Shown here: positions 7,580-61,518 of the stretch, one piece after another
Layout: each line of letters opens with the position of its first letter
How positions within the stretch are numbered: position 1 is the first letter of the stretch
Assembly: GCA_964502445.1 (NCBI GenBank)
Contig: CAZCWM010000004.1
Span: 127,977 to 191,976 of the forward strand
Source: an uncultured Phycisphaeraceae bacterium
GTDB lineage: Bacteria; Planctomycetota; Phycisphaerae; Phycisphaerales; Phycisphaeraceae
Reading direction: 5' to 3'
Length of the DNA: 64,000 bases
Position numbers and translations under genes: made by a program
The notes under the pieces: model-generated
The model's database searches: none
Told to the model about the DNA's origin: nothing
What the model saw: the letters and a program-made list of their open reading frames with translations, nothing else

Positions 7580-7668
7580 GATGTTCTCCAGCAGAGGGTG
7601 AAGGGGACTATCCAGATCGACGTTCAATTCGCAGGGAGCTGGACCGGCCAGTTGCTAAAATCATAGGG

Positions 7669-9045
7669 GTGTCGGCCCCACACTCCAATCCGGCGGCGAA
7701 CAACCGGCGTCGCGCTCGGCGCGGGGTGCCGGGCTGGCTGCTGATCTCAGCGTTGGGGCTGGCGGCGGCGGTTTCGACGGGTCGGGCGGATGTGCTCGAA
7801 CTGCACGACGGGGCCCGCTATGAAGGCCGTGTCATCGAGCGTGACGACGAAGTCGTTGTATTTGAGATCAACATCGGTGCGGTGCGTCTGGCGAGGCGAT
7901 TCAACATCGCGCAGGTGCGATCGCTTCAGGTCGATGGCGCCGCGGCCGGCCACGGCGCCGGGCCACCTGCTCTGGCTGCGTTCGATGCCTCCGCGGCCGG
8001 TCCGGCTGACGTTGCCACGTCCACGCCGACCTACCTGCGCATTCCGTTGCACGGGGAGTTCGGCGCGGCGATCGACGGGCCGACGCTGGGGGCCTGCCTC
8101 GACCACGCCCGGCAGGTGGGCCCCGACGTGGTCGTGCTCGACATCGACAGCCCCGGCGGCGCGCTCGAGACGCTGGTGGACGTGGCCGAACGTCTGGGCC
8201 GCTTCAGCCGCGATACGTCGATCCCGCTGATCGCCTTCGTGAACAACGACGCTCTTTCGGCCGCGGCGCTGACCACGATGTCCGTGCCGACGATCTACGT
8301 CACGCCTGATGCGTCGCTGGGCGCGGCGCTGGTGATCAACGTCGGACCAGGCGGAGCCGTTTCGTCCGTGGCCGCGGGCGGCGACGTGGCGGAGAAGTTC
8401 CTGTCGGTCTTCCGCGCCCGGGTACGCGGCTGGGTGCAGCAGGCCGGCCACGACCCGCTGCTGTCCGAGGCGATGATCGACCCGAGCGTGGAGCTGGCGC
8501 TGGTCCACGGGCCCGACGGCGAGCCGCGCGTGCTGCGCGGGCCGATCGAGGCGCGCGACCTGCCGCCCGGCGATCTGCCCGAGTCGATCGTCGCCAGCGG
8601 CCGCCTTCTCACGCTCACGGCTCTTGAAGCCCAGCGCGTCGGTCTGGCCGACGGGGTGGTGGCCAACCTCGACGAACTGGGCCAGGCGCTGGGCTGTCCC
8701 GACTGGCGGCCGATCGATGATGAGGCGGCGCGGCTCATGGCCGAGCGCGCCGATCTGGTCGCTCGCGTGCAGGCTGACTATGAACGTTCGGCCAGGGGGC
8801 TGCTTACCACCTTCGGGCAACTGACCGACGGGTCGGCCGCGCAGTTGGGCGACTTTGAGCGCGGCATCACCGGTCTGCGCTCGCGCATCACGCGCATCGA
8901 GCGGCTCGTGGAGGAGCACCCCTTTCTGACGCCACGGGCCATGGCCGATTTTCCCAACGGGCTGGGCGGCCTGCGGCGTCAGTGCGACGAGGTTCTCGCC
9001 GACATCCGCCAGAAGCGGCGTGAATACATCCGGTCGCGTCAGTAG
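7669..9045 (+). CDS. NfeD/ClpP-class periplasmic serine protease-like protein
   Basis: GTG start followed by a signal peptide. The block VVVLDIDSPGGALETLVDVAERL...IPLIAFVNNDALSAAALTTMSVPTIYVTPDASLGAA resembles the NfeD/SppA ClpP-fold protease domain (SPGG ... SAA). Confidence 0.65.
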   Translation: MSAPHSNPAANNRRRARRGVPGWLLISALGLAAAVSTGRADVLELHDGARYEGRVIERDDEVVVFEINIGAVRLARRFNIAQVRSLQVDGAAAGHGAGPPALAAFDASAAGPADVATSTPTYLRIPLHGEFGAAIDGPTLGACLDHARQVGPDVVVLDIDSPGGALETLVDVAERLGRFSRDTSIPLIAFVNNDALSAAALTTMSVPTIYVTPDASLGAALVINVGPGGAVSSVAAGGDVAEKFLSVFRARVRGWVQQAGHDPLLSEAMIDPSVELALVHGPDGEPRVLRGPIEARDLPPGDLPESIVASGRLLTLTALEAQRVGLADGVVANLDELGQALGCPDWRPIDDEAARLMAERADLVARVQADYERSARGLLTTFGQLTDGSAAQLGDFERGITGLRSRITRIERLVEEHPFLTPRAMADFPNGLGGLRRQCDEVLADIRQKRREYIRSRQ

Positions 9046-9125: not shown

Positions 9126-9199
9126 GGCCCTGTAGCCCAACTGGCAGAGGCAGGCGACTTAAAATCGCTCCAGTGCGGGTTCGACTCCCGCCAGGGCCA
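9126..9199 (+). tRNA. tRNA with anticodon UAA (nominally Leu) but a class-I body with a short 5-nt variable loop
   Basis: The cloverleaf was folded by eye. Acceptor stem GGCCCTG/CAGGGCC, U8, D arm GCC(C)...(A)GGC with GG in the loop, anticodon stem GGCGA/TCGCT, loop CTTAAAA (U33, anticodon TAA, A37). Variable loop CCAGT, T arm GCGGG-TTCGACT-CCCGC, discriminator A. No CCA is encoded. Confidence 0.8.
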
Positions 9200-17496: not shown

Positions 17497-18635
17497 GGGA
17501 TGCCGCTGACGATGTGGGGACCGACGATCTTGGTGACCCAGACGGGCAACTTCCGCCACAGGGCGATGCGGCGGCGGTACGCGGGGTTATCCGGCCGCAG
17601 TTGCCCGATCCGCCCTTCGCGGACGTAATACTGCCAGATGGTGGCCTGCGGCTTGGCGCCCCACTGTTTCTTGAAGCGGTAGGTGCCCGAGTCCTCGCTG
17701 CTGCGGCCGAAGTCGAACAGCCGGCTGCCGCGCTGATGGGCTCGCAACAGCAGGCGGTGGTACATCCACATATTGGCGTTGGTGTGGTTGAACGTCCGCA
17801 GGCACGATGCCGAGGGCACGGCCGTGGTGGCGGGCTCGGCGGCGGCGCGATGATGGGTGAGCAGCGCACCGGCGATGGCCTGGCCATCACAGGAAACGAC
17901 CGCGAGCTCGGCGGCTTCGAAGGTTTTGAGGATGCTGGCGAACAGCCGGCGCGGATAGACCGGCGTTCCCAGGTCGCGCATATTGACGGCGAATACGCGG
18001 TAGAAGTCGTCGAGCAGCTCCCGGCCGCCGAAGCGGATCGCGAGGTTGTGCTGTTCGCCTTTGCGGACCTGGTTGCGCACCTTGGACGGCAGCGCCTTCC
18101 AGATGGCGCTGGCGGCATCGTCGGCGGATGCGGTGTCAGGCAGTTCGAGCACCATGCGGAACTTGTCGTCGCGCGTGTGGTTCAAGGCTGGATGGTGGAT
18201 CGGCTGGCGCTGATGACGCAGCTCGAGATACTGGACGCCCAGCTCGTCGGCCAGGGCGACCGCTTGACCCACGAGAGCCGCCGCGGCCACGTCGTCATCG
18301 GCCACCACGCCGGCGCGGTTGAGGTAAGGCAGGCTCACGAGGAAGCGGCCGAACAACCGGCTGCGGACCAGGGCCAGGGGCATGAAGCCGCACATCCACC
18401 CGTTGGCTGTGGCGTCCCAGGCGATCAGCAGGTAGGGATCGTGGCCCATCGAGCGTCGCAGGACATCGAGCCAGCGCGGGTCATGTTCCCCGCTGCCCGC
18501 CAGGGCCGGCGGGTCGGCGGGCGTGGGGCATCGCTGGAGAAAGGCCCGCACCTGCTCGCCGATCGCGTCATCAGGGCGATGAATCACTTCGACGGTATGA
18601 CGTGGCCGCTCAGTACTGGAAGAGGACGCGATCAT
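17493..18635 (-). CDS. FemAB-family (GNAT-fold) protein, PEP-CTERM-system-associated type
   Basis: SRLFGRFLVSLPYLNRAG..., KVRNQVRKGEQ..., FYRVFAVNMRDLGTPVYPRRLF..., and NMWMYHRLLLRAHQRGSRLFDFGRSSEDSGTYRFKKQWGA are the blocks I associate with TIGR03019-type FemAB-related proteins. ATGA overlap with the upstream gene. Confidence 0.75.
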   Translation of the reverse strand: MIASSSSTERPRHTVEVIHRPDDAIGEQVRAFLQRCPTPADPPALAGSGEHDPRWLDVLRRSMGHDPYLLIAWDATANGWMCGFMPLALVRSRLFGRFLVSLPYLNRAGVVADDDVAAAALVGQAVALADELGVQYLELRHQRQPIHHPALNHTRDDKFRMVLELPDTASADDAASAIWKALPSKVRNQVRKGEQHNLAIRFGGRELLDDFYRVFAVNMRDLGTPVYPRRLFASILKTFEAAELAVVSCDGQAIAGALLTHHRAAAEPATTAVPSASCLRTFNHTNANMWMYHRLLLRAHQRGSRLFDFGRSSEDSGTYRFKKQWGAKPQATIWQYYVREGRIGQLRPDNPAYRRRIALWRKLPVWVTKIVGPHIVSGIP

Positions 18636-19270
18636 GCAGCCTCCGCGTTGGCGTCGGTACTGGTCTCGGCGAGCTTGAGGGTCGTGGACGGGACGTCGAC
18701 GATGGCTCGGGCGGGCACGCCAGCCACGCGCTGGCGATCGGCGACCGGTTTGACGACCACGGCCCCGGCGGCGACGAGGGCGTCGGCGCCGACATCAGCC
18801 ATCACGACGCTCGCGGCTCCCAGCCAGGCGCCGTGGCCGATGATGACGCGCTGGCACCGCTGGGGATTGTCGCGCATGGGCCTGCCGTCGACCGGTTGCG
18901 ATCCGTGCGTATGTCGGCCGCTGAGCACCTGCACGCCGTCGGCCAGCATCACACCATCGCCAAGGTCCGCCAGGCCGACGGTGCAGAAGCGACCGATGTA
19001 GACGCCGTCGCCGATGCGTGTCTCGGGCTTGCTCAGTACGCTCATGAATCCGAAATGCACATCGCGGCCGACATGGGCCAGCGTGCGGCGGTAGAAGGCG
19101 GCCCGCACGTGCAGTCCCCACAGTCCGGGCAGGCGTGACAGGCGCTCGCTGGCGGCGCTGAAGGCCCGGCGGCGGCCGAGCGGGACTGCGCTCAGGTGAT
19201 AGCCCAGCAGGCAGGGGCAGGCTCCGGCGAGGGCGGCGGTACGAAGCAGGGCTCGGGCGAGTTGGCGCAT
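18632..19270 (-). CDS. Left-handed beta-helix (hexapeptide-repeat) acyl/acetyltransferase
   Basis: Hexapeptide repeats ([33 protein letters not shown]...[31 protein letters not shown]). ATG 19270 has a GGAG RBS. This is the first gene of the three-gene exosortase operon. Confidence 0.75.
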
Positions 19271-31268: not shown

Positions 31269-32382
31269 TCAGGCGTGGGCCTTCTCTTTCGCCCGGCGGC
31301 GCAGCTCGGCCTCGATGAAGCCCTGAAGATCGCCATCGAGCACCCGCTGGGGGTTGCCCACTTCGTGGCCGGTGCGGATGTCCTTCACACGGTTGTCGTA
31401 GATCACGTAGCTGCGGATCTGCGTGCCCCAGCCCATGTCGAGTTTGCCGCCGGTGGCCGCATCGAGCTCCTGCTGTCGTTTCTGCTCCTCCATGAGTTCA
31501 AGCTTGCCGCGCAGAATACCCAGGGCCTGCTTGCGGTTCTGCTCCTGGCTTTTGTGGACGGAGCAGACGATCTGAATGCCGGTGGGAATATGGGTGAGTC
31601 GCACGGCCGTGGCGACCTTGTTCACGTTCTGGCCGCCCGGGCCCGACGAGCGGGCGAAGCCGATGATCTCGACGTCTTTCTCGTCGACCTGCACGGCGCC
31701 GTCTTCGTCGAACTCGGGCACGACGTCGACGGCCGCGAAGCTCGTCTGCCGCTTGCCCTGGGCGTTGAAGGGGGAGACGCGAGCCAGGCGGTGAGTGCCG
31801 CGCTCCGCAGAGAAGTAGCCGTAGGCCATCGGACCCTGGATGTAAAGCGTGACGTCCTTCAGGCCGGCCTCTTCGCCAACGGTCTTGTCGATCTCCTGAA
31901 CCTTGAAGCCGGCATTCTCGCAGTAATGCAGGTACATGCGCAGGAGCATCTCGGTCCAGTCCTGGGCCTCGACGCCGCCCTCGCGGGCATAGATGGTCAT
32001 GTAGCAGTTGCGGCCGTCGTACTTGCCCGACAGCAGCGAGAGCGTCTCGACACGCTCCAGGCGTTCTTCTAGCTTGTCGATCTGGGCGTCGACTTCTTCT
32101 CGCGTTTCCTGGTCGTCGGCCTCTTCGGCCATATCCCAGAGCACGCGGGCTTCCTCGACGGCCCGCATGGCGCTGCGCAGCGGATCGACGCGTGACTTGA
32201 CGGCCTTCATCTGGACGACAGTCTTGTTGGCCGCGTCCGGGTCGTCCCAGAAATGCGGATCGGCCATGCGCTTCTCGAGTTCCTGAAGCTCGGCCAGCTT
32301 GCGATCGTAGTTAAAGAGAGTCGCGGATCGTTAAAATCCGCGCCTCGAAGTCATCGAGAATGCCGGGGATATTGTCGCGCAT
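31269..32382 (-). CDS. prfB: Peptide chain release factor 2, requiring a programmed +1 ribosomal frameshift
   Basis: The frame-0 segment 32382..32314 encodes [23 protein letters not shown] and ends at CTT TAA C (TAA at 32313..32311). The +1 frame from 32312 continues [24 protein letters not shown]..., which aligns with the RF2 N-terminus. The SPF tripeptide (RVSPFNA) and GGQ ([10 protein letters not shown]) are present. The ORF track only shows 31269..32267. Confidence 0.9.
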
Positions 32383-33779: not shown

Positions 33780-35048
33780 TCATGCATCAGCCGCATCGCA
33801 TAGCAGACAGACGGCGGCATCCACCAGCCGTCGTCCCGCTTCGGGCGCGAAGCGGCTGGCCGGGAACGTGCATTCGTAGCCGCCTCGGGCCACCGCGTCA
33901 GGAAACGGCATGTAGCCGATCGAGTCATTGCCGTTGCCCACGATGAAGCTGTAGTCGAAGGGGCTGTCTTGCTTGATCTCGATGCCCAGGCGCGTGAACA
34001 GCTCGCAGCCGACGCTGATAAAAGCCGCCTGCTCCCCCCCCAGGGTGACCGCCTGCAACTCAAGCTCGTAGGCATCGCGCCCGGCACGCCAGGCGTCAAA
34101 GCGCTGACGGGCGGCCGCGACCACGTCCGGGGCAAGAAACATCTGGTGCGGCCCATACACTTTGTCGGGGTCGCGGAACGGCAACGCGACACAGGCCTTG
34201 GACGCGCCGACATGCATCGCATGCCGGTATTCGCCGTGTTCAGCCAGATCGACAACCCGATCGGCCAGGGTGCGGCCGATGCGGTCCACGTCCTCGTCCA
34301 CCGTGGGGTCCAGGCGATTCTGGGCATGGACGTCGCCGAAGGCGCCGTTGAGAAAGACGACGCCGCACGATTGCCCGAGTCGCTGGCGAACGCGGTCCAC
34401 CATGCGTCCCGGCCAGCCGCGCTGCACGGTCTGGTCGCCGCCGAACTGCGTGGGGTGCAGGGCGAAATTCACCACCAGGCCGCGCATCGCGCCGCCGGGG
34501 CTGCGCAAAGCGATCACGCCCAGCTCGGGGTCGATCGGACTTTCCACGCAGCGGATGTTCGGGTCGCCAGGCCTCGGCTGGCTCTTGACCGACCCGTCTT
34601 TCATGAGGCAGCGGCGAATGAAGCTTACCCGTCCCTCGACACCGCTGGCCACGCACGCCTCGACCGGCGCCAGGGCGCCACAGGCCTCACGGATCGCGCT
34701 CACAAGTCGCGGGCCGACGAACTCGACGGTGTAAGGCACAGTGGTCTGGATGGGGCGGTCATCGGTGAACCCCGGAGCCGCGTGGTTGTGCGTCGCGCCG
34801 AGGATCAGATCGCCGCCGGGCAGACAGTCGGCTGTGCGCTGCCGCACGTGTTCGGTCAGACGCCGCGGCGTCCAGCACAGATCATGCGACACCAGCGCCG
34901 CCCGCCGCCGACCATCGTCGAGCACGGCGACATGGGCGAAGATCGGCTCGACGATCCTGTCGATGACGATCGGATGCGACCAACTGAGTTTGTAACCGCC
35001 GACCGACGGCGTGATGTCGACCTGAGCGAAGCCGGCTCGGAGGGTCAT
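33780..35048 (-). CDS. Neutral/alkaline ceramidase N-terminal-domain-like hydrolase (paralog 2)
   Basis: ATG 35048 lies 4 nt after the DegT stop, with a GGAG inside the upstream gene. MTLRAGFAQVDITPS..., LGATHNHAAPG, RVSFIRRC, NFALHPTQFGG, LNGAFGDVH and GGYEC are clearly paralogous to 32471..33754. Confidence 0.65.
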   Translation of the reverse strand: MTLRAGFAQVDITPSVGGYKLSWSHPIVIDRIVEPIFAHVAVLDDGRRRAALVSHDLCWTPRRLTEHVRQRTADCLPGGDLILGATHNHAAPGFTDDRPIQTTVPYTVEFVGPRLVSAIREACGALAPVEACVASGVEGRVSFIRRCLMKDGSVKSQPRPGDPNIRCVESPIDPELGVIALRSPGGAMRGLVVNFALHPTQFGGDQTVQRGWPGRMVDRVRQRLGQSCGVVFLNGAFGDVHAQNRLDPTVDEDVDRIGRTLADRVVDLAEHGEYRHAMHVGASKACVALPFRDPDKVYGPHQMFLAPDVVAAARQRFDAWRAGRDAYELELQAVTLGGEQAAFISVGCELFTRLGIEIKQDSPFDYSFIVGNGNDSIGYMPFPDAVARGGYECTFPASRFAPEAGRRLVDAAVCLLCDAADA

Positions 35049-35052
35049 GAGG

Positions 35053-36348
35053 TCACTCCCGTGCAGGCGTGGCATTGATGAGCACGTCGGCCTGTTCGAG
35101 CACTTTGCGGATGGCGCGGGCGACGGCACGGGCGGCGTCGCGGCCGTTGGGCGCCCGCAGCGGCGATCCCAGACAGAAGTGGGTGTCGCAGTGTCGTTGG
35201 GCCACCGGGAACTTCGCGGGGTCGTAGTCGACCTGCCCGGCCTGAGGCAGGGACCACGGGACGCCTTGGCCGTAGGCGTTCCTGGCCTTGAAGACGGTCA
35301 TGTCGGGCAGGATGAATCGCTGCCAGACCATGGCTCGGGCGCCCTCGGCGTTCATGGCTTTGAGCAGCTTGTCACGCAGAGCGACCGGCGGGCCGTCATA
35401 ACCCCAGGCCGTCGGATCGATGCGCAAGGTAGCGTTGTACCAGTTGTGCATGTGGCCTTGCGGCTCGGTGGGCAGGATCAGGCCGGGCGCGCCTTCGAGT
35501 TCCGCAAACAGGGCGGCTGCATTCTCGCGCTGCCGGGCGATGTAGCCATCAAGCTTGGTGAGCTGGGCCCGGGCGAAGGCGGCGCCCAGGTCGTCGTTGC
35601 GGTACATCCAGCCCAGGGCGTAGGCGTGATAGTCCCGGCTCTGGGCCGGGGTCGCGGTTTCGCCGAACGACCAGATCTGCAGGGCCTTGAGGTGCAGATC
35701 GTCGTCATCGGTGACGAACAGGCCGCCCTCGCCGCCGCACAGGCACTTGTTCTGGTTGAGGCTGAAGGCGGCGCAATGCCCGAAGGTGCCGACCTTGCGC
35801 CCTTTGAACGTCGCGCCGTGACTTTGACAGGCATCCTCGATCACCATCAGCTTGTGGCGACGGGCGATATCCAGCACGACGTCCATATTCACGGCGAGCC
35901 CATGCAGGTGTACGACGATGATGGCCCTGGTCTGAGGCGTGATGGCCGCTTCGATCTTCGTCACGTCGATGTTCATCGTCTCCCAGTCGATATCGACGAA
36001 GACGGGGATGGCGTTGTGGTGCAGGGCGCAGGTCGCGGAACTGGACCATGTGTAGGCGGTGACCAGCACGTGATCGCCAGCCCCGCAGCCGACGGCGGCG
36101 ACGGCCATGTGCAATGCAGCCGTACCGGAGTTGGTGGCGATGCAGCGGCGGTTGCCGTTCCACGCGGCGAATTCGTCCTGCAGCTTGACGCAGTTGGGCC
36201 CGAACGTGTGGGCGTCACTCTCGAGCGATGCCATCACGTAGCGCCGGTCGATCTCGCCGATCGGCGGCCAGGGCTGCAGCAGGTCGTCGGGCACGGCCTT
36301 GGGCCCGCCGAGAATCGCCAGGGTGTCGGTTGCGTGGGGCATGGGCAT
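35053..36348 (-). CDS. DegT/DnrJ/EryC1/StrS family PLP-dependent aminotransferase
   Basis: LAILGGPKAVP..., EFAAWNGNRRCIATNSGTAALHMAV..., AGDHVLVTAYTWSSSATCALHHNAIPVFVDID..., IVVHLHG and FSLNQNKCLCGGEGG (Lys in the expected Schiff-base context). A GGAGA RBS precedes ATG 36348. Confidence 0.85.
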   Translation of the reverse strand: MPMPHATDTLAILGGPKAVPDDLLQPWPPIGEIDRRYVMASLESDAHTFGPNCVKLQDEFAAWNGNRRCIATNSGTAALHMAVAAVGCGAGDHVLVTAYTWSSSATCALHHNAIPVFVDIDWETMNIDVTKIEAAITPQTRAIIVVHLHGLAVNMDVVLDIARRHKLMVIEDACQSHGATFKGRKVGTFGHCAAFSLNQNKCLCGGEGGLFVTDDDDLHLKALQIWSFGETATPAQSRDYHAYALGWMYRNDDLGAAFARAQLTKLDGYIARQRENAAALFAELEGAPGLILPTEPQGHMHNWYNATLRIDPTAWGYDGPPVALRDKLLKAMNAEGARAMVWQRFILPDMTVFKARNAYGQGVPWSLPQAGQVDYDPAKFPVAQRHCDTHFCLGSPLRAPNGRDAARAVARAIRKVLEQADVLINATPARE

Positions 36349-36500: not shown

Positions 36501-39434
36501 TCACTGGCGATCAAACAGCGTGTTGTCGTCCGGACCGAAATAGCCGACACCCAGGTCGCGGGACTGCTGCTCGGTGGGGCCATAGATGCTGGCGCGGGTG
36601 AAGGTCATGGTGTGGGCGTCGACGTGGGTGTCGAGGTAGATGGCATTGGCACGGCCTGTGTGGCGGAAGTGGATCGACGGCGTGGAGGGGCCGCCCCAGG
36701 TCCAGAGGGGCGGTTCGATGAACGAGTACTCGGCGGCGATCACTTGCGTGCCGTCGGGCTGGGCGATGGCGGCGTCGGCGAACATGAGTGTGCCGGCCGC
36801 GTCGCGGAAAGCGTCGACCCGGGCGCCCAGCGCGTCGGGATTGTCGAAGTCGGTGGGATTGTCACGCCCGACGTACTCGTTGTTGTAGCCATAGCCGCCG
36901 TTGCCGGCCTCGAAGCCCCGGCCGTCGGGCGAGTAGGCGGGGCACTGCTGGATCGAACCTTCCTTGCCCAGGTACGGGGTGAGCGGGCCTTCACGGTGGT
37001 TGAAGGGTTCGCCGCCGCCGTCGCGCGAGCCGTGCCAACGATGGCGGTTTTGCATGAAGTTGGCCGCGCCGGGGACGTAGCGCTGGTCGTGATCGGCGGC
37101 GAAGGCGACGTTGGCGTGGGCCAGTTCACGCAGGTTGGCGGCGCAGCCGGCGACATCGGCGGAGCTGCGGGCCGAGGCGAGGACGGGAAACAGCAGCCCC
37201 ACCAGCACGCCCATGATGGCGACGACCACCAGCAGTTCGATGAGGGTGAAGGCGGTCGAAGTGGGTTGAAGGTTCAAGGCTGAAATTCGCAATGAAGGTT
37301 GAGGCGGGGGCACGCGTCGGCGTCGACGGGTGAAGGTGGCGAGGCCGAGGGCGAGCATCACAGCCGTCGTCGGCTCGGGCAGGGCGGGGGTCGTTCGCAC
37401 CGTCAGGTCATCCATGGCGAAGAACCCCGGCGTGTTCATTCCCCAGTCGCCCACGTCGCTGGACGCGAGGCTGAAACTCAGACTGCTCACCTCGCCCAGG
37501 GGTTGAAGGTCCACCCACGTCCACGCATCAATGAGGTAGTCGCTCGCGCCAGGGCCGGTAAAATCCGCCAGATAGAACGGCACGCTGCCGATCTCCGTCC
37601 CGCTCGCGTCGTGGCCACGAATCGTCAACAGGAACCAGTCGGGCGCCGTCCCATCCTCGCCGCCGAACCGCTTGGCAAACCCGTCCCCGTGCAGCATGGA
37701 CAGGTAGGCGTAGGTCGTGTTGGTGAAATAGGCGCCTTCAACGACGGTGGGTGCGGGCAGGATGACGCGGGCGTGGCCGCTGACGTCGGCCACGGCGTAC
37801 CGCGACGAGCCGTGGACGCCGCCGCCGGTGAAGGCGCTGAACGAATTGCCGAAACCGGCCGTGGTGGTGTCCGTGGCGGCCGAGACGGCGAAGCCCTGCC
37901 AGTAGAACCAGTCGCCGTCGGAGAAGACTTCGAAATCCACGCCGCGGCTGCTCCAGGTTTCGACCAGCCCCACGCCGCCGATGCCGTCGACCGGGTACTG
38001 GCCGCTGTAGGCGATCGCGGCGCCCAGGTCGACGTCTTCGAAGTCGACGATGACGCTGGTGTGAGCGAGGGGGGCCACAAGCGTGAGAGCCAGCGAGACA
38101 GGCAGGGCCCCGAGAGCGGCGTGAACCGCTGCCATGGAGCGGCGGCTCGAACCGCTCGTGATGCGTGGAGGGGCGAACCCGCCGCGCCGGCGCCTGAGGC
38201 CGAATGTGATTGCGAGCAGCATGACCGACAGGGCGCTCGCGGGCTCGGGGATGACGGCGCCGGAGCCGGCCCCCGCGCCGGTGAGCAGGGCGACGAACCG
38301 ATTGATGTCCTGCGTATTCACACTGCCGGAGTTGTCGGGATCGATGGCCGCGATATCGATGCCGGGGTAGGCCGCGGCATAGCCGGCGAAGTTGGTGAGG
38401 GCGAGAACGAAGGCATTGATGTCCTGCGTGTCGACATGTCCGGAGGCGTCAAAGTCGCCCGGCGGTGTATGCGTCTGATGCAGCACCGCCACCGCGTCCA
38501 GATCGAAGCCGCCGCTGTTGAACGACGTGGTGAAAGGATCGTTGACGATGTGGCCGAGGCCGTCGTAGGTAGCGTATGCGGGATCGATGCTGCCGACGAC
38601 GTCGATAAGGCGCACATGCGTGATCGCACGCAGATCCAGCACGGCCACGCCAGCCTCATCGGCCGTCGCCTGCAGGTCGCTCAGGTCGAACGGCGTCCCG
38701 AATCCCTGGCGGTACTTGCCCGCCAGGTTGTGCAAGTTGGTCGGATCGAGCGTCGACCACGGGCCGATCTGCGTGGTTGTCGGCGTCAGGCTCACGGCTG
38801 GGAAGCGGAAAAAGTCATGGCCATTGGACGAGACTTCAACGAAGGCCAGTTCGAGGAACGTATCGGAGAAGGCGTTTTCAAAGACCGCCAGATCGGCGCC
38901 TGGGCCGTTGGCGATCGGATGGGGAAAGGTGAGCGTGATGCTTCCGCCATCGCCGAGGCTGACGACGCCGAAGACATCGCCCTGGGCTGGCCCGAGGGCA
39001 TTGGCCCCGGAGCCGAAGGATGCAAGGGCGGCGAAGGGATCGGTGATGTCGATCGACCCGCGCGTGAGAGCGGCGACGGCATCGGCCCAATTGACGATGC
39101 TTGCGTCACCAATGGCGATGGCGGTGGAGCCTTCGAGCCCCGCGGCCGGGGCGTATGGGCCGGCCTGAGCCATGGCGGTGAAGACGCTGAGCAGGATGAT
39201 TCCTATCACGGCGAGACCGCTGCGCACGTGGCCCGTCACGGATCGCTTCAGACGCTGGTCACGCCTCGCGACCGTCAGGCAGCGGTGCCGTTCTCGTACG
39301 GTGGAATGCGGGCCGCGCACCGACGCTCGCGGCTTGTGGCGGGCACACGCCGGCTGCGTGGTCGTCTCTGCCAAATGTGCGGATGCTCCAGGAGATTCGA
39401 TGAGCGATGGGAGGGTCGATAGGAACCGATGCAC
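36501..39434 (-). CDS. Tri-modular secreted/surface protein: [signal peptide - beta-rich domain - 2 dockerin-like repeats - PEP-CTERM] + [signal peptide - DUF4465-like domain - PEP-CTERM] + [prepilin-type N-terminal motif - DUF1559 (H-X9-D) domain]
   Basis: A single uninterrupted frame of 977 codons. GTG 39434 lies 6 nt after a strong AAGGAG RBS (39441-39446). Module 1 covers residues ~66-417, module 2 residues 434-707 and module 3 residues ~720-977. See the sub-features and findings. There is no SD-like sequence before the internal Met434 or before module 3. Confidence 0.75.
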   Translation of the reverse strand: MHRFLSTLPSLIESPGASAHLAETTTQPACARHKPRASVRGPHSTVRERHRCLTVARRDQRLKRSVTGHVRSGLAVIGIILLSVFTAMAQAGPYAPAAGLEGSTAIAIGDASIVNWADAVAALTRGSIDITDPFAALASFGSGANALGPAQGDVFGVVSLGDGGSITLTFPHPIANGPGADLAVFENAFSDTFLELAFVEVSSNGHDFFRFPAVSLTPTTTQIGPWSTLDPTNLHNLAGKYRQGFGTPFDLSDLQATADEAGVAVLDLRAITHVRLIDVVGSIDPAYATYDGLGHIVNDPFTTSFNSGGFDLDAVAVLHQTHTPPGDFDASGHVDTQDINAFVLALTNFAGYAAAYPGIDIAAIDPDNSGSVNTQDINRFVALLTGAGAGSGAVIPEPASALSVMLLAITFGLRRRRGGFAPPRITSGSSRRSMAAVHAALGALPVSLALTLVAPLAHTSVIVDFEDVDLGAAIAYSGQYPVDGIGGVGLVETWSSRGVDFEVFSDGDWFYWQGFAVSAATDTTTAGFGNSFSAFTGGGVHGSSRYAVADVSGHARVILPAPTVVEGAYFTNTTYAYLSMLHGDGFAKRFGGEDGTAPDWFLLTIRGHDASGTEIGSVPFYLADFTGPGASDYLIDAWTWVDLQPLGEVSSLSFSLASSDVGDWGMNTPGFFAMDDLTVRTTPALPEPTTAVMLALGLATFTRRRRRVPPPQPSLRISALNLQPTSTAFTLIELLVVVAIMGVLVGLLFPVLASARSSADVAGCAANLRELAHANVAFAADHDQRYVPGAANFMQNRHRWHGSRDGGGEPFNHREGPLTPYLGKEGSIQQCPAYSPDGRGFEAGNGGYGYNNEYVGRDNPTDFDNPDALGARVDAFRDAAGTLMFADAAIAQPDGTQVIAAEYSFIEPPLWTWGGPSTPSIHFRHTGRANAIYLDTHVDAHTMTFTRASIYGPTEQQSRDLGVGYFGPDDNTLFDRQ
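37185..37253 (-). other. Prepilin-type N-terminal cleavage/methylation motif (AFTLIELLVVVAIMGVLVGLLFP) located internally
   Basis: Residues 728-750. It is followed by DUF1559-like sequence and a C-terminal FRHTGRANAIYLDTHVD (H-X9-D) motif typical of planctomycetal pseudopilin-like proteins. Confidence 0.8.
37314..37382 (-). other. Internal PEP-CTERM sorting signal 2 (LPEPTTAVMLALGLATFTRRRRR), not followed by an in-frame stop codon
   Basis: Residues 685-707. It follows a DUF4465-like domain (WFYWQGFAVSAATDTTTAGFGNSFSAFTGGGVHGSSRYAV...FYLADF...WTWVDLQPLG...SSDVGDWGMNTPGFFAMDDL). Confidence 0.8.
38184..38252 (-). other. Internal PEP-CTERM sorting signal 1 (IPEPASALSVMLLAITFGLRRRR), not followed by a stop codon
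   Basis: A PEP tripeptide, a hydrophobic helix and an Arg cluster at residues 395-417 of the 977-aa ORF. It is preceded by dockerin-like repeats GDFDASGHVDTQDINAFVLAL and DPDNSGSVNTQDINRFVALL. No stop occurs in any of the three forward frames for more than 200 nt downstream. Confidence 0.8.
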
Positions 39435-39667
39435 GATGGTCTCCTTGCCCTGATTCGCGCAGGGCGGCCCCGAGGCGACGATGCAATCGTGTCGGCGCGT
39501 TGGGGTTCGAAGACGGGCCGTGGCGGCCGATCGGACAATCGTGTGGCCGGGCCAGGTGATCGCCGTCGTCGGCCGGTGGGTCCGCTTCGGGTCACGGGGG
39601 CATCGGGGCTGCTTCGGGGTGCAACAGGCCGAACCCTCGTGGTCCCGTAACGCGAGGACACACGCGG

Positions 39668-39989
39668 GTCCGACAGGCAGGTCTTCCGGCTCTGAGCTTC
39701 ACGGTCCGGGGCCTTCCCATCCAGCCGCACGCTGCATCCAGCGTGGGCCAGACAGTGGCGAAGATTCCGGGCCGCCTATCCCTTCGGCAGGCCGCCTCGC
39801 TCGTTCAATGCGAGGGCATGAATGCCAAGGGCCGCTCATCACGGCGGCGCGTCCGCGGAGGCTTTTCCGGGCTCGGTCGATGCCGCTGCACCCCTTTGAA
39901 AGGCAGGCAGGCGGTCGGCCTCGTCCGGGTACCTCACTTCCCTTTTCACCCGTCCGGGCCGATTCGGCTCGGGCGGGCACCTGTCGGAC
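39668..39989 (-). promoter_or_regulatory. Cobalamin (AdoCbl) riboswitch-like leader, long variant
   Basis: On the minus strand there is a 10-bp closing helix, GTCCGACAGG (39989..39980) with CCTGTCGGAC (39677..39668). Elements in order are GGTGCC, AAAAGGGAAG, GCCACTGT, a hairpin, GGGAAGGC, and the B12-box-like AGCCGGAAGACCTGCC immediately 5' of the 3' P1 strand. That box is one mismatch from the E. coli btuB box as I recall it. It lies about 230 nt upstream of the GTG 39434 start. Confidence 0.65.
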
Positions 39990-40001
39990 GTCTGAAGGCC
40001 G

Positions 40002-40030
40002 ACAATATCGGGCCCGCCCACAGGGGTCAA
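40002..40030 (-). promoter_or_regulatory. Sigma-70-like promoter for the riboswitch-led transcript
   Basis: Minus strand TTGACC (40030..40025) - 17 nt - TATTGT (40007..40002), ending 12 nt before the riboswitch P1 helix. Confidence 0.35.
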
Positions 40031-40121
40031 GCCCCGGCGAGCCGACGAGGTCTGGGGCGTGAGTAACCGACTCAAGCGGCTTGCATGATCGGTCGATCGC
40101 GGTACATTATTGGGCCGCTAC

Positions 40122-40193
40122 GCGGGTGTAGCTCAGTGGTAGAGCGTCACGTTGCCAACGTGAATGTCGTGGGTTCGAGCCCCATCACCCGCT
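40122..40193 (+). tRNA. tRNA-Gly (anticodon GCC)
   Basis: GCGGGTGTAGCTCAGTGGTAGAGC, anticodon stem TCACG/CGTGA, loop TTGCCAA, T arm GTGGGTTCGAGCCCCAT, acceptor CACCCGC, discriminator U. CCA is not encoded. Confidence 0.95.
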
Positions 40194-40311
40194 TTGGACC
40201 TTGATCCGACCTGGATCGGGTCCGGTTCAAGTTAATTTTGCTGACGCCCCGGTTGCCGCCGGGGCGTTGTCGTTGGTGGCGGCGGTGACGCAGGCGATTA
40301 CGGGTCGACCG

Positions 40312-48166: not shown

Positions 48167-48412
48167 TCAGCGATCATTGCGCATGCGCTCGGAAAGCTGG
48201 CGGAAGTAGGCGTTGCGCATCTGCAGCGATTCGCGGACGCGGTCGTGCAGGTCGATGTGCTTCTTGCGCTCGTAGGTGAGGACGGTGAGTACGGCCGTGA
48301 CCAGCAGATAGCCCAGCAGCAGAAGCACGGGCCAGACGGATTGGATGGCTTGCCAGTTCACGCGAAGAAAGACCTGCCGGTTGAGGAGGGTCGCCGGTGG
48401 GGTTATCGGCAT
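48167..48412 (-). CDS. Possible small single-pass membrane protein (81 aa)
   Basis: ATG 48412. One TM (VWPVLLLLGYLLVTAVLTVLTY) and a basic C-terminal tail, located upstream of pyrC on the same strand. No homology is recognised, so this may not be a gene. Confidence 0.3.
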   Translation of the reverse strand: MPITPPATLLNRQVFLRVNWQAIQSVWPVLLLLGYLLVTAVLTVLTYERKKHIDLHDRVRESLQMRNAYFRQLSERMRNDR

Positions 48413-48546
48413 TGGGGGGCTTTGAGCTTCAGCCGGCCCTCTGCGACGGCGGTCGAGGGCATGGTTTTGTGCTGGTTGGCGAAGATGGGCGATGGCTGTC
48501 GCGGCGGGGTGGATCGACACGGCCGGTCGGTAGACTATGGAGCGTG

Positions 48547-51036
48547 ATGCGCTTGGGCTGTGAAGTTCGGGGATGCGTCGGTCGCCGGGTGAGGGTGGGT
48601 GTGCTGCTGTGCGCGGCGGCCTGGTGCGGGCTGTGGTGCTCTGCGGCGGCGCAGCCCGTGGCGACCGGCGAAAGCGAGCCGGTGGTGTCCATTGCCGTTG
48701 GTCCCGAAGGTGTCGGGTTAGGTGGTCAGTATCGGCCGGGCGATTGGACGGCTTTATCGGTTGACCTTGCGAATCACGCAGGCCGGCCACTCGGCGTGAT
48801 CTGCGAATGGGTGTTGCAGGATGCCGATGGCGATCCGCTGCACATGCGGCGGGCGGCGACGCTGGATCCATCGCGACCGGGTCGCATGTGGCTGTATGCG
48901 CCTGTGCCGCTGACCAGCGGCCTGCGGCCGCGCTGGCGGGTGAACGTTCTGGGCACGATGGACGAGGAGGCGAACGCCCTGCTGGCCACGCGCCTTCTGG
49001 AGCCGCGTCCCGAGTCGTACCTTTCGCCGCGCGCGGGTCTGGTGGTGCTGACCGGTTCGAGCCGGCTGGGTCTGGAGGCGTATGCGACAGCGCATACGCA
49101 GCAGGAGCCGGTGAATCTGGTCAATGACGTCGATCCTGCCGACCTGCCCGATCGCTGGTACGGATTGACGTCGGCCCAGGCGCTGATCTGGACGCCCGAC
49201 AGCCGGGACTTCGACGACGCGGCGGTGGGCTATGCGACGGTCGCGGCGGTGCGGCACTGGGTGATGCGTGGCGGGCATCTGGTGGTGGTGCTGCCGGCCG
49301 CGGGCGAGCGCTGGACGCGGGGACCGCTGGCGGCCCTGTTGCCGTCGGTGACGCTGCGGCCGGTGGATGATGTGGGATGGCCGACATGGCTGGGCGGGCC
49401 CAGCCGCGTCACAACCGGCGAGGCGCGGATCGCGGCGCTGTCGCTGGAGCTGGTGGAGGCCGAGGTGGGCCGGCATCCGGCGCAGCCTCCCGCGGCGGTG
49501 TTGCTGCGCGATGTGGAGGGGCGGCCGCTGGTGGTTGGAGCCTCGGCGGGGATGGGACGGGTGACGTTGATCGGGCTGGACCTGACGCATCCGGCGCTGA
49601 GGCGGATGGGCCTGCCGCGCGGGCCAGGTTTATGGTCGGTGGTGTTCGGGTGGCGCAGTCCGGCGTGGGAGGCGCCGCGCATCGAGGCGGAACTGGCGGC
49701 GAGGCGTCTGTCGTCGCCGCAGGGACGGGCCGGCTATGAGCAGAGCCGGTTCATCGCAGTCCTGACGGCCAGGCGGTCGACGGCTGGGGGGATCATCGGG
49801 GTGTCGATTGTTGGGCTGACGGTGTATTGGCTCGTGGCCGGACCGCTCGGATTCATGGTGTTGCGGCGTCGCGGCCAGACGCATCTGGCGTGGATGGTCT
49901 TCGCGGCGGTGGTTCTGGTATTCAGCGTGACGGCCTGGGGGGCGGCACTGCTGCTGCGTCCGACGCGCGGGAGCATCGAGCATATGACCGTCATGGATGT
50001 CGACGTGACGACGGGCCTGGCGCGGGTGCGAGGCTGGGCGTCGTTGCTGGTGCCTCGGCACCGTACGGCGGCGCTGGAGCTTGGGTCGACCGGGGAAGCA
50101 AACAACGAAATGGCCGCGTCGCGTCGCATGGACCCGCGCGTCGGTCCGGATGTATTGGCGTCGGCGGCGTTTGAGGATCGGCTGGAGAGTGGCGGATTCG
50201 TTGTGCCGGTATCCTACGAGGCGGACGCGGCCGACCCGCTGCGAAGTGAAGGCGACGCCGCGCCGCTACGCGTGCCGATGCGTGCGACGACACGAACCCT
50301 GGCGTTTGACGCGATGCGCCGAACGCAGGGCATGGTGGATGTCTATGCGACAGGGCTTCCTCTGGGACAGGTGACGGTGACAAGCGAGGCGGGATCGGCT
50401 CGCGTGCAGGGCGATGTGCGGCACGGGCTGCCGGGTCCGCTGCGCAACGTGCTGATCGTCTACTGCCCTGGCGATCGAGGGATGCCGCGCGTGACGCAGC
50501 AGGCGATCTGGGAGGCGGGCCAGCCGTTGGGTCTGGATGGGTTGAACCAGCCGGGGCAATGGCTGGAACTGCTGGCTGCGCCGGAGGTGATGTCGCCGGC
50601 CGAGCGAGCCGCGGGGGCTCTGATGAAACCGTGGCGCGGCTACCTGGGGCGGCTGATGCGCAGCGCCGACGCCGACGCGCCCCAGGCCGGTGCGCCGCCG
50701 GGCGCGGTGGGCGACGAGATTTTCACGTTGACCGAGGATCAGACGGTGAGGATGATCCAGCGGCTGAGTTTCTATGCGATGCTGCCGCCGCCGCTATGGG
50801 ACCGGGTGCAGATGTTCGGTAGCGCCGAAAGCTGGCACGCCGAGCGGGCGTTGGGCCGGGGCCTGGACCTGACCGATCACCTGGCGCAGAGGCGGCTGAT
50901 CGTGATCGGCCACCTGCCCGACAGCTCGCCGCCGCTGTCGTGGCGTGTGGACGGCCGCGAAGTGCCGGGGCACGGGTGGACCGTTGTACGCTGGATGACG
51001 CCGGTACGCGGCGCCAGGGATGGCGGAAGCAACTGA
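48547..51036 (+). CDS. Large hypothetical membrane protein (signal peptide, extracytoplasmic domain, two central TM helices, C-terminal domain)
   Basis: ATG 48547. Signal-like VGVLLCAAAWCGLWCSAAAQP. TM helices IIGVSIVGLTVYWLVAGPLGFMVL and LAWMVFAAVVLVFSVTAWGAALLL. It ends 27 nt upstream of an ABC ATPase gene. No domain is recognised. Confidence 0.5.
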   Translation: MRLGCEVRGCVGRRVRVGVLLCAAAWCGLWCSAAAQPVATGESEPVVSIAVGPEGVGLGGQYRPGDWTALSVDLANHAGRPLGVICEWVLQDADGDPLHMRRAATLDPSRPGRMWLYAPVPLTSGLRPRWRVNVLGTMDEEANALLATRLLEPRPESYLSPRAGLVVLTGSSRLGLEAYATAHTQQEPVNLVNDVDPADLPDRWYGLTSAQALIWTPDSRDFDDAAVGYATVAAVRHWVMRGGHLVVVLPAAGERWTRGPLAALLPSVTLRPVDDVGWPTWLGGPSRVTTGEARIAALSLELVEAEVGRHPAQPPAAVLLRDVEGRPLVVGASAGMGRVTLIGLDLTHPALRRMGLPRGPGLWSVVFGWRSPAWEAPRIEAELAARRLSSPQGRAGYEQSRFIAVLTARRSTAGGIIGVSIVGLTVYWLVAGPLGFMVLRRRGQTHLAWMVFAAVVLVFSVTAWGAALLLRPTRGSIEHMTVMDVDVTTGLARVRGWASLLVPRHRTAALELGSTGEANNEMAASRRMDPRVGPDVLASAAFEDRLESGGFVVPVSYEADAADPLRSEGDAAPLRVPMRATTRTLAFDAMRRTQGMVDVYATGLPLGQVTVTSEAGSARVQGDVRHGLPGPLRNVLIVYCPGDRGMPRVTQQAIWEAGQPLGLDGLNQPGQWLELLAAPEVMSPAERAAGALMKPWRGYLGRLMRSADADAPQAGAPPGAVGDEIFTLTEDQTVRMIQRLSFYAMLPPPLWDRVQMFGSAESWHAERALGRGLDLTDHLAQRRLIVIGHLPDSSPPLSWRVDGREVPGHGWTVVRWMTPVRGARDGGSN

Positions 51037-60102: not shown

Positions 60103-61518
60103 TTACCGCGCGCCGCCGATGGCCAGAATCTGGCGCCGTGTGCTCGGAATGATCCGCTGGTTGTTGGGCAACTGGCGTTCGGCCAGGGCGCCGTCGGCAT
60201 CGAAGACGAGGGTCTCGAACGGTGAATTGGGACTCGGATGGATGGTGACGCGTGTGCCGCCGCGGTTGTCGGGGGTGACGGTCGCGGTGCGATAGGTGAT
60301 CTGTCCATCCGAGGGGTAGTAGGCGTAGAAGCCCAGCGTGCTTGATCCATCGGGACTGACGGAGGCGGGCACGGCCTTGGGCAGCAGCGGGGGCAGCAGG
60401 TACAACTCGGCTTGCGAGAGATATCCGGCCGGCGGAGCCTGCCATTCGAAGCTTTTCTTCTGGCCGCGGTCTTCGCGCGTGACTGTGATGCGGTTGCCGC
60501 TGCGCACGCCGGTCTCGATGACGGTCATGTCCTGGGGCACGCCGCCGGGGGTCGCGCCTTGCGGGCGCGTGGTGGTCTTGGTCGACCAGATCTCCTGCTC
60601 GCCGTCGCGCGACACGAACATTTCGCTAAGGCTGTCGACCGACTGACCGCCAAGTTGGGCGTGGGCCTGGACGGTCACCGTCAGGCCCGGGTAACCCATC
60701 CTGGTTTCGAGCTTACGGCTCAGCCGCAGGTGGCCGATATCGTCGGACCCTTTGAGCAGGCGGTACCACTGCTCCTCGGGCAAGGCCTGGGCCAGGCGTT
60801 CGAACCCCTGATTGTCGCGCACAGCCTGGCCGAGTTCGATCTCGATTCGCCGCCGAGCGTCGCGTTGGTCGGGATCCTCGATGCGCATGCTGGCGAGCAT
60901 GGCTTCGAGGATGGGGCGGGCGTCATTCAGCCGCTTCGCATCCACGAGGCTGCGCACCATGACGAAACTGTCGTGGCTGATGAGCGTGTAGGCGTGCAGA
61001 AGGATGAAGGGCTGTCCTGAGCTGGGATCCTTGATGCGAAAGTAGAGGGTCGCGGAGGGCAGGTCATCCAGCGGGGCATTGTCGCGGTCCATCAGGACGG
61101 CGGAGGGGTGAGCGACATTGACCTGCTGCATGGCCATCGCGACGACCTGGTCGATCGTCAGCTGAACCGCGGACGTGGATGAGGCGGCGGGGTTGCGGAT
61201 AACGCTCGTCGGCTCACTGGCCTCGACCTGGCGCAGGTAAACCTCCGCGGAGTAACCCTCCGCACCGGCGATGCGCAGCAGGGCGTCATCGGCGGTGGCC
61301 TGGTGGAGCGTTGCGCCCAGCGGCGGGCGCAGGGAAATGCCGAAGGCTTGCTCGGACCAGCGTTCGGCGGCGAGCAAGGCGTCTTGACGCTGGGCGGTGA
61401 TATCGGAGATGGCGGCCGAGGCGGCCGACGGTATCGCCATCGGCATGGCGAGCGTGGCCGCGATGAAAAGGATCGGCGTGCGGATGCAGATCACACTAAA
61501 TCGGGGGGTCGTTTTCAC
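60103..61518 (-). CDS. Hypothetical secreted protein (471 aa)
   Basis: GTG 61518 with a GGGAG RBS, 12 nt after the upstream stop. Signal peptide ILFIAATLAMPMAIPSAASA. No domain is recognised. Confidence 0.5.
   Translation of the reverse strand: MKTTPRFSVICIRTPILFIAATLAMPMAIPSAASAAISDITAQRQDALLAAERWSEQAFGISLRPPLGATLHQATADDALLRIAGAEGYSAEVYLRQVEASEPTSVIRNPAASSTSAVQLTIDQVVAMAMQQVNVAHPSAVLMDRDNAPLDDLPSATLYFRIKDPSSGQPFILLHAYTLISHDSFVMVRSLVDAKRLNDARPILEAMLASMRIEDPDQRDARRRIEIELGQAVRDNQGFERLAQALPEEQWYRLLKGSDDIGHLRLSRKLETRMGYPGLTVTVQAHAQLGGQSVDSLSEMFVSRDGEQEIWSTKTTTRPQGATPGGVPQDMTVIETGVRSGNRITVTREDRGQKKSFEWQAPPAGYLSQAELYLLPPLLPKAVPASVSPDGSSTLGFYAYYPSDGQITYRTATVTPDNRGGTRVTIHPSPNSPFETLVFDADGALAERQLPNNQRIIPSTRRQILAIGGAR

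Follow-up and report, generated by a model that had tools for sequence, protein, structure and literature searches.

A predicted insertion-expanded cobalamin riboswitch ahead of a single-frame candidate corrinoid-scavenging operon in an uncultured Phycisphaeraceae bacterium

Introduction

As a micronutrient, vitamin B12 is both traded and contested, and well-described accessory systems for its capture are, to our knowledge, limited to gut Bacteroides. In Bacteroides thetaiotaomicron, the btu operons 1-3 are controlled by riboswitches and encode BtuB together with the surface lipoproteins BtuG, BtuH, BtuJ, BtuK, and BtuL. In the present study, a stretch of 64,000 nucleotides (nt) from an uncultured Phycisphaeraceae bacterium (contig CAZCWM010000004.1, positions 127,977 to 191,976; hereafter the window) was analysed, and an element of the cobalamin riboswitch type was found on its minus strand, followed by the presence of a 977-amino-acid (aa) open reading frame (ORF) composed of three modules. 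The locus is best explained, with good probability, as a B12-responsive OFF riboswitch governing a single-ORF corrinoid-scavenging operon with exosortase-sorted binders, both the binding and the expression being predicted.

The locus resembles the B. thetaiotaomicron operons in the placing of a cobalamin riboswitch before sequences for extracellular B12 binders, DUF4465 (BtuJ) and probably a BtuH-type domain among them, and repression by B12 would likewise be expected (PMC13616437, PMC8941943). Unlike in those operons, the binders of the window were found to carry PEP-CTERM tails in place of lipoprotein signals, the products were all fused in one ORF, a pilin-like partner without a Bacteroides counterpart was present, and BtuB, BtuG, and BtuFCD were absent from the operon and from the window ORFs scanned.

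The DUF4465 family comprises BtuJ1 and BtuJ2 (PMC13398666, PMC13616437). Binding of B12 has been demonstrated for eight divergent DUF4465 proteins, among them one of Mucisphaera calidilacus, a species of Phycisphaerae (PMC13398666), and BtuJ1 sustains B12-limited growth in B. thetaiotaomicron (PMC13616437). The published neighbourhoods of DUF4465 stress its co-location with TonB-dependent and ABC transporters (PMC13398666), which were absent at the window locus. The BtuH domain was described as being without known structural homologues and as occurring in gut Bacteroidetes and three Firmicutes species only (PMC8941943).

Results

The aptamer and its fold

The covariance model RF00174, run with permissive filters over positions 39400-40150, was found to align end to end at 39999-39659 of the minus strand with a score of 30.5 bits (E = 7.5e-6), the gathering score being 31.5 bits. 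The RF00174 search proposed by a first-pass annotation of this DNA therefore yielded the full-length alignment and stopped short of the gathering threshold. Every motif listed in that annotation was located on the minus strand at the position given, namely the two strands of P1 (GTCCGACAGG and CCTGTCGGAC), GGTGCC, AAAAGGGAAG, GCCACTGT, GGGAAGGC, and the B12 box (AGCCGGAAGACCTGCC). The core was found to contain the AAGGGAA junction followed by GCCACUG, GGGAAGG, and the B12 box, all enclosed by P1.

As in described RF00174 elements (the Escherichia coli btuB leader, Thermoanaerobacter, and env8), the leader contained, in order, P1, the junction AAAAGGGAA, the stem of P4, GCCACUG, GGGAAGG, and the B12 box. 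Immediately 3′ of P1, a candidate for the kissing loop of L5 with L13 was also located. Unlike those elements, which span about 190 nt, the aptamer of the window occupied 341 nt on the 189-position model, in keeping with the first description of this leader as unusually long. The extra length was contributed by about 63 nt inserted into L4 and by additional hairpins in the peripheral P6-type region, and a C-rich spacer of about 190 nt separated P13 from the Shine-Dalgarno (SD) sequence. The score below gathering was attributed to three large insertions.

Three related leaders, designated here by the numbers of their loci, were found to score above gathering (L002, 37.6 bits; L003, 40.1 bits; L004, 47.9 bits), and the RF00174 element of L002 contained the same P1 as the window. 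An RNAalifold consensus built on the three aptamers of the window, L002, and L003 retained P1, P2, the P4 stem, and the long-range helix. P1 was of 10-11 bp, alignment columns 11-21 pairing with columns 351-361 in all three orthologues. Compensatory double changes were found in 15 of the 89 consensus pairs, distributed over P2, the long-range helix, and the insertion hairpins. The site of the L4 insertion was identical in L002 and L003, and compensatory pairs were found within its hairpins. A fold with limited covariation support from three sequences was obtained, together with related leaders above gathering. When metagenomes were scanned with a DNA pattern of the B12 box and P1, the single contig obtained (L062) was identical to the window, and the depth of the comparison thus remained three sequences without a gain in covariation data. 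On these sequence comparisons, the element is judged to be a genuine, insertion-expanded RF00174-type cobalamin riboswitch with a peripheral P6-type extension, for which cobalamin binding is predicted. The features of the locus are collected in Table 1.

Table 1. Positions of the riboswitch, expression-platform, and coding features within the window
Feature	Position	Strand	Basis
Promoter-like site TTGACC-N17-TATTGT	40002..40030	-	single site in 39000-40250
RF00174 cobalamin riboswitch aptamer (predicted)	39659..39999	-	model positions 1-189, 341 nt with insertions
P1 5′ strand, GTCCGACAGG / GUCCGACAGG	39980..39989	-	motif check, RF00174 alignment, RNAalifold
L4 insertion of about 63 nt, between GAGGUA and AAAAGCCUCC	39867..39929	-	Rfam and leader alignments
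P5/L5 (GCGG-ACGCG-CC), loop ACGCG at 39852-39848	39846..39856	-	L003 Rfam alignment, identical window sequence
B12 box, AGCCGGAAGACCTGCC / AGCCGGAAGACCUGCC	39676..39691	-	motif check and RF00174 alignment
P1 3′ strand, CCTGTCGGAC / CCUGUCGGAC	39668..39677	-	motif check, RF00174 alignment, RNAalifold
Candidate P13 hairpin GUCC[UCGCGUUACG]GGAC	39642..39659	-	loop CGCGU complementary to L5
Spacer from P13 to SD hairpin	39466..39641	-	C-rich, G-poor, length varies
Hairpin GCCCUG-CGCGAAU-CAGGGC, SD AAGGAG (39446-39441), 6 nt, GTG (39434-39432)	39432..39465	-	leader alignment
Downstream ORF, 977 aa, three modules	36501..39434	-	single frame
65-aa basic N-terminal extension before signal peptide	39240..39434	-	ORF and orthologue alignments
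Module 1 core, aa 92-323, probably BtuH-like	38466..39161	-	AlphaFold (AF2) model, Foldseek, profile, hhalign, riboswitch context
Dockerin-like repeats (aa 324-392) and first PEP-CTERM tail VIPEPAS...RRRR (aa 393-417)	38184..38465	-	TIGR02595
Second, internal signal peptide MAAVHAALGALPVSLALTLVAPLAHTS, in frame, no preceding stop	38055..38135	-	ORF, junction, and topology analysis
Module 2, DUF4465, BtuJ-type jelly roll, predicted to bind B12	37404..37913	-	PF14717
Second PEP-CTERM tail LPEPTT...RRRRR	37314..37388	-	TIGR02595, 20.7 bits, cut-off 16
Module 3: prepilin leader and helix (STA before FTLIELLVVVAIMG), globular domain ending H-X9-D(T)	36504..37313	-	PF07963, TIGR02532

Promoter and expression platform

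The promoter that had been proposed just upstream of the leader was located at 40030-40002 as the only promoter-like site in 39000-40250, where shuffled sequences contained a mean of 0.2, and it was kept in the orthologous leader of L002. Four blocks were found to be kept in the leader alignment of the window, L002, and L003, namely the promoter (window and L002), the aptamer, the hairpin that follows P1, and the SD/start block. The last of these, consisting of hairpin, SD, and start, was common to all three leaders, and the GTG of the window at 39434 was aligned with the annotated starts of the homologous proteins P0001 and P0035. The SD-adjacent hairpin followed the beginning of the P13 hairpin at a distance of 194 nt (window), 157 nt (L002), or 121 nt (L003), and the spacer of the window contained 42% C and 29% G.

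The candidate P13 hairpin was found to be incompatible with an alternative hairpin, UCCUCG/CGAGGG (39658-39634). The position of L5 was read from the Rfam alignments, an earlier search by regular expression having misplaced the loop in most sequences. L5 was found to contain ACGCG in the window, L002, and L003, UCGCG in L006, and UUGCG in L007. The complement CGCGU was present in the window and L002 at offsets +1 and +13 after the 3′ strand of P1, the complement CGCGA at offset +20 in L006, and the complement CGCAA at offset +53 in L007. The two loops changed in step across three lineages (ACGCG/CGCGU in the window, UCGCG/CGCGA in L006, and UUGCG/CGCAA in L007), which gives moderate support to a candidate L5-L13 kissing loop of the canonical type. 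An 8-bp duplex, GGACGCGC/GUGUGUCC, was also considered as the kissing loop and was rejected, as the A-to-U change in L5 of L006 lacks compensation there. A leader peptide, starting at a UUG after CGAGGG, was rejected as well, its frame and start being unconserved in L002.

In L006, a 15-bp intrinsic terminator with T8 was found between the aptamer and the genes, which indicates that transcriptional control exists in the lineage. In L007, the complement of L5 was placed shortly upstream of an SD-like GAGGA that precedes the start codon. For the window, output by premature termination, probably Rho-dependent, within the C-rich spacer of about 190 nt is given a chance approaching even, and a somewhat lower one is given to output by blocking of the SD together with the conserved hairpin next to it. 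Attenuation in the spacer is favoured over SD occlusion.

The downstream ORF and its predicted export signals

The 977-aa product was recorded with the same start on 4 contigs, and its codon statistics were gene-like, with a G+C content at third codon positions (GC3) of 0.83. The basic N-terminal extension of 65 aa was found only in the window, the signal peptides of P0001 and P0035 being placed directly after the start. Both tails scored above the TIGR02595 cut-off of 16 bits (18.2 bits for the first and 20.7 bits for the second), by which the PEP-CTERM label of the first-pass annotation was borne out. The dockerin-like region was supported by a weak Dockerin_1 match in the L006 orthologue.

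The ORF was found to contain, in one frame, a signal peptide followed by a PEP-CTERM tail, a second signal peptide, a second PEP-CTERM tail, and a prepilin leader. As in described exosortase substrates (PMC1569441), each of the two PEP motifs was followed by a hydrophobic helix and an Arg cluster. Unlike in those substrates, both tails were internal instead of C-terminal, and each was followed in frame by a new export signal. The junction of modules 1 and 2 (about 38136-38183) contained no stop codon, and the same was found in P0001, P0028, P0035, P0083, and the giant ORF of L039. At the junction of modules 2 and 3 (about 37251-37319), the window contained CGA at 37319-37317 where L001 contained a TGA stop, a difference of one base, and the SD of module 3 that was present in L001 was lost in the window. 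The fusion of modules 2 and 3 was particular to the window. The hydropathy and charge pattern was compatible with an alternating in/out topology with basic cytoplasmic linkers, which makes cutting by signal peptidase, exosortase, and prepilin peptidase topologically possible. A processing of the polyprotein by these three enzymes may be proposed from the order of the signals.

Module 2

Module 2 was found to match PF14717 with 172 bits against a cut-off of 25 (E = 2.1e-50), which agrees with the DUF4465 label it had been given. Its matches in the PDB were 9FCT (BtuJ1, E = 5e-23), 9HMU (E = 6e-23), and 9I2L (BtuJ2, E = 2e-8). DUF4465 had also been presented as a B12-binding family, which holds, the binding being experimental and a Phycisphaerae member included (PMC13398666). 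Its further equation with the BtuH module was rejected, as the family is published as BtuJ1/BtuJ2 (PMC13398666, PMC13616437). It is apparently module 1, unassigned in the first-pass annotation, that corresponds to the BtuH-like part.

The tyrosines of BtuJ1 that contact B12 are Y146 in the DE loop and Y245 in the HI loop, within NTPxYF (PMC13398666). Module 2 was found to keep the DE-loop Tyr equivalent to Y146 (TNTTYAYL). Among the DUF4465 binders known outside Bacteroidota, D5EK51 of Coraliomargarita akajimensis (9HMU) and 'Pan' of M. calidilacus (PMC13398666), the same Pfam family, jelly-roll fold, own signal peptide, and DE-loop Tyr are found. Unlike these two, the domain of the window was placed inside a polyprotein with a PEP-CTERM ending and contained Phe in the HI loop (NTPGFF).

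Module 1

Module 1 had no Pfam match and, by single sequence, no significant PDB match. It was found to be 47-74% identical across phyla with at least 30 invariant columns. Its AlphaFold (AF2) model was of high confidence (predicted local distance difference test, pLDDT, 93.3; pTM 0.92), and the first two Foldseek ranks were 8BLW_B (E = 8e-4, TMq 0.45) and 7BIZ_B (E = 1.2e-3, TMq 0.48), which are BtuGH and BtuH2, respectively, the two PDB entries that contain the BtuH B12-binding domain. These were followed by generic, carbohydrate-binding, and discoidin jelly rolls. A profile search against the PDB placed residues 373-472 of 8BLW_B, the BtuH domain of BtuGH, at the top (E = 0.018). A search for the BtuH family seeded with the BtuGH fragment returned eight short fragments only, and hhalign of module 1 against four BtuGH fragments gave P = 2.3e-4 with a probability of 44.6%, a result kept weak by the BtuH profile being thin and covering half of the domain. 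The invariant N96, F98, E104, and D220 of module 1 resemble in spacing, by residue numbers and with no alignment, the BtuH2 metal site of N399, F401, E406, and D522 (PMC13616437). Module 1 is likely to be homologous to the BtuH domain, and B12 binding is predicted for it. By exhaustive phmmer search, the family was found to contain 2,061 clusters at 50% identity (E <= 1e-3), and 857 at E <= 1e-30.

Module 3

Prepilin-type H-X9-DG proteins are hugely expanded in Planctomycetota and are of unknown function. Module 3 was found in frame with module 2, with an in-frame TTG at 37277-37275, and matched PF07963 (N_methyl) with 21.5 bits against 21.2 and TIGR02532 with 21.6 bits against 16.3. Its N-terminus matched pilin N-termini in the PDB. 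The first-pass annotation had labelled it DUF1559, an assignment that was rejected, as PF07596 gave no match to module 3 even at E <= 10 and BLASTP aligned it with the true DUF1559 protein of L039 over the N-terminal pilin helix only. Like the DUF1559/H-X9-DG proteins of Planctomycetota and Verrucomicrobiota (PF07596, PF07963), module 3 contains an N-terminal methylation motif, a hydrophobic helix, and a C-terminal His-X9-Asp, and in L039, a locus from Pirellulaceae, a true DUF1559 member takes up this place in the operon. Unlike them, it contains DT instead of DG in the motif and Ala instead of Gly at residue -1 to the cleavage site, and it forms part of a separate subfamily, frequently joined to module 1. 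We therefore class module 3 as a prepilin-type H-X9-D protein outside Pfam DUF1559.

The subfamily was highly conserved. It was present as a stand-alone gene in L001, L003, and L006 and was repeatedly fused to module 1 (P0025, P0029-31, P0034, P0038, P0055, and P0066), which argues for a dedicated partnership of the two. No paper linking DUF1559 with cobalamin was found in the literature searched.

Comparative genomics of the riboswitch loci

The closest homologue of the 977-aa protein was P0001 (64% identity), found on contigs L001 and L002. The module 1 core was found in 56 genome loci, the majority of them from Bacteroidota and the others from Pirellulaceae, Verrucomicrobiota (Akkermansia included), Kiritimatiellales, Desulfobacterota, and one Gammaproteobacterium. 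A cobalamin riboswitch was found upstream of module 1 homologues in 27 of 37 loci from at least five phyla; on the same strand, a cobalamin-class riboswitch was present in 13 of 20 mostly non-Bacteroidota loci and in 14 of 17 Bacteroidota loci.

A TonB-dependent receptor was found directly upstream of module 1 in seven non-Planctomycetota loci (L042, L045, L046, L049, L054, L057, and L058), which come from Verrucomicrobiota, Desulfobacterota, and others, and most of the seven contained the order riboswitch, DUF4465, receptor, and module 1. The loci of the Planctomycetota type (window, L001-L006, L039, and L041) contained no TonB-dependent receptor and were found to contain the pilin-like module instead. 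Modules 1, 2, and 3 recurred behind riboswitches, permuted or fused, in L001-L006, L039, and L041.

Some of these loci contained further features. L039, a Pirellulaceae metagenome-assembled genome (MAG), was found to contain at 3815-8626 of the plus strand a giant ORF with one module 1 and three tandem DUF4465 domains, placed behind a riboswitch and a true DUF1559 gene, and the matches P0002-P0027 of 1,000-1,660 aa suggest that multi-binder proteins are common in Pirellulaceae. L058, a Kiritimatiellales MAG, contained at 875-947 an AdoCbl-II aptamer (RF01689) in place of RF00174, followed by DUF4465, the TonB-dependent receptor, and module 1, which indicates that the regulon is served by different riboswitch classes. 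In L004, a weak match to Acido-Lenti-1 RNA (30.9 bits, gathering 37) was found upstream of the riboswitch at 4430-4476, and downstream, at 4869-4983, a possible ORF of about 38 codons overlapped the start of a 338-aa unknown gene, which precedes the fusion of modules 1 and 3.

Genomic context in the window

The window had a G+C content of 67%, and the neighbours of the riboswitch locus were housekeeping genes. The first-pass annotation had held that secreted PEP-CTERM proteins, and no transporter or enzyme, were under control of the leader; in agreement with this, no TonB-dependent receptor was found across the 64 kb window. No further B12 genes were seen among the window ORFs scanned.

A tRNA gene (72.3 bits) was found at 40122-40193 of the plus strand, directly upstream of the riboswitch promoter and divergent from it; its anticodon loop, UUGCCAA, identifies it by eye as probably Gly-GCC. 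A second tRNA was present at 9126-9199 of the plus strand. The gene of release factor 2 was found to run from 32310-32382 (minus strand) into the ORF 31269-32267 by an apparent programmed +1 frameshift, with an ATG at 32382, an in-frame CTT TAA C at 32316-32310, and the frame resumed at +1. Its frameshift stop was UAA instead of the usual UGA, and no obvious SD-like stimulator was found upstream. The closest relatives of the release factor 2 protein were proteins from Phycisphaeraceae MAGs, and the organism was assigned to the class Phycisphaerae of Planctomycetota. Four large ORFs resembled genes in their codon statistics and matched no Pfam entry at E <= 1e-4, namely 48397-51036 (plus strand, 879 aa), 33780-35129 (minus strand, 449 aa), 60103-61518 (minus strand, 471 aa), and 17514-19001 (plus strand, 495 aa).

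Discussion

The proposed B12-responsive OFF switch would operate as follows. At high intracellular B12, the ligand-bound aptamer would lock P13 just 3′ of P1 through a kissing loop of L5 (ACGCG) with L13 (CGCGU), the alternative hairpin UCCUCG/CGAGGG would be excluded, and expression would be off. When B12 is scarce, the 977-aa product would be made, inserted by Sec with an alternating topology, and cut by signal peptidase at two sites, by exosortase at the two PEP-CTERM tails, and by prepilin peptidase. The resulting products would be BtuH-like and BtuJ-like corrinoid binders on the cell surface or in the matrix, together with a pilin-like protein, which occupies the operon position held in other phyla by a TonB-dependent B12 receptor and presumably aids the passage of corrinoids across the outer membrane. 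Repression by B12 and anchoring at the surface through exosortase are both predictions. A B12-repressed set of PEP-CTERM corrinoid-capture proteins in Planctomycetota had been outlined in the first-pass annotation; the outline stands, and its equation of DUF4465 with BtuH and its DUF1559 label were replaced as described above.

Several observations weigh against this explanation. The riboswitch was not reported by the default Rfam scan of the entire window at gathering, which returned two tRNAs only, the aptamer being 1 bit short of that threshold, and covariation within the insertions was thin because only three close orthologues were compared. An exact complement of L5 was not found 3′ of P1 in L003, L004, and L039, and such a complement would occur by chance in 10-26% of cases per sequence. 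The minus strand of the window leader contained no intrinsic terminator-like site, and a long-range anti-SD pairing was rejected, as its best partners differed between the window, L002, and L003. The HI-loop Tyr, which is 97% conserved in DUF4465, was replaced in module 2: Phe occupies the Y245 position in the window as well as in P0001, and Tyr is retained by P0028, P0035, and P0083. The link of module 1 to BtuH was weak by each single measure (TM 0.45-0.48, E = 0.018, hhalign 44.6%). The structural model of module 3 was poor (pLDDT 49.9). No gene for an exosortase or for a prepilin peptidase was found among the window ORFs scanned.

The switch might act purely by translational control, with the SD-adjacent hairpin (loop CGCGAAU) as the real L13 that kisses the CGCG of L5 and blocks the ribosome, and the spacer as a tolerated linker. 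Apart from the aptamer, no part of the leader was better conserved than the hairpin/SD/start block, its loop CGCG is complementary to the CGCG of L5, the spacer was of variable length (194, 157, and 121 nt) between conserved ends, and in L007 the complement of L5 shortly before the SD-like GAGGA forms a classical translational layout. The match in the SD-adjacent loop is however of 4 nt, self-complementary, and without covariation among the three sequences, whereas the complement in the hairpin after P1 is better (5 nt), stands in the canonical position, and covaries in L006, and L006 itself uses an intrinsic terminator. Purely translational control is accordingly held to be possible and rather unlikely. 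That the aptamer is a decaying relic, with B12 binding lost and the ORF constitutive or otherwise controlled, is very improbable. Its score under gathering, for which the default Rfam scan missed it, the three large insertions, and the oddities of the ORF, into which 65 aa were inserted at the N-terminus and from which a stop codon was lost, would suit such a relic, but the core motifs, P1, and the B12 box were all intact, the insertion sites with their compensatory pairs were shared by L002 and L003, both above gathering, the downstream platform elements were conserved, and the ORF was found on 4 contigs with gene-like codon statistics (GC3 0.83).

A functional switch may also control products outside B12 uptake, such as adhesins or lectin-like proteins for attachment to partners that produce B12, or 'sponges' that sequester corrinoids in competition, the pilin-like protein then being an unrelated Planctomycetota paralogue. 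The carbohydrate-binding and discoidin jelly rolls that follow the two BtuH entries among the neighbours of module 1, the lack of a transporter in the operon and the window, and the dockerin-like repeats and PEP-CTERM tails, which are typical of matrix-associated proteins (PMC1569441), are consistent with such a role. It is nevertheless improbable, as module 1 directly follows BtuB-like receptors in the riboswitch operons of other phyla, DUF4465 proteins sustain B12-limited growth in B. thetaiotaomicron (PMC13616437), and the repeated fusion of module 1 with the pilin-like module argues for a dedicated partnership. The preferred reading remains that of a B12-responsive OFF riboswitch ahead of corrinoid-scavenging products. 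A bolder extension of it, which is considered unlikely, holds that B12 crosses the planctomycete outer membrane without a TonB-dependent receptor, two surface binders being joined by a dedicated pseudopilin that pulls corrinoids inward through a machine like a type IV filament or a type II secretion system. Competence pseudopili, which take up DNA, provide the model, and the fusion of the BtuH-like and pilin-like modules would then be a physical hand-over.

With respect to the Bacteroides and DUF4465 literature (2022-2026), the cross-phylum module 1 family, the pilin-like partner in place of the TonB-dependent receptor, the polyprotein, and the sub-threshold expanded riboswitch are new. The aptamer provides an example for riboswitch annotation, as a functional-looking element that is overlooked at standard Rfam thresholds, and the chaining of export and sorting signals without stops is an unusual gene architecture. 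A Pfam-less family of about 2,000 clusters at 50% identity is placed in the B12 regulon of at least five phyla, and the BtuH domain, supposedly confined to Bacteroidetes, probably belongs to this wider family. One subfamily of the prepilin-type H-X9-DG proteins of Planctomycetota gains a first functional context, and exosortase-sorted binders with a pilin-like protein in the operon position of BtuB are presented as a candidate route for the acquisition of B12 in Planctomycetota.

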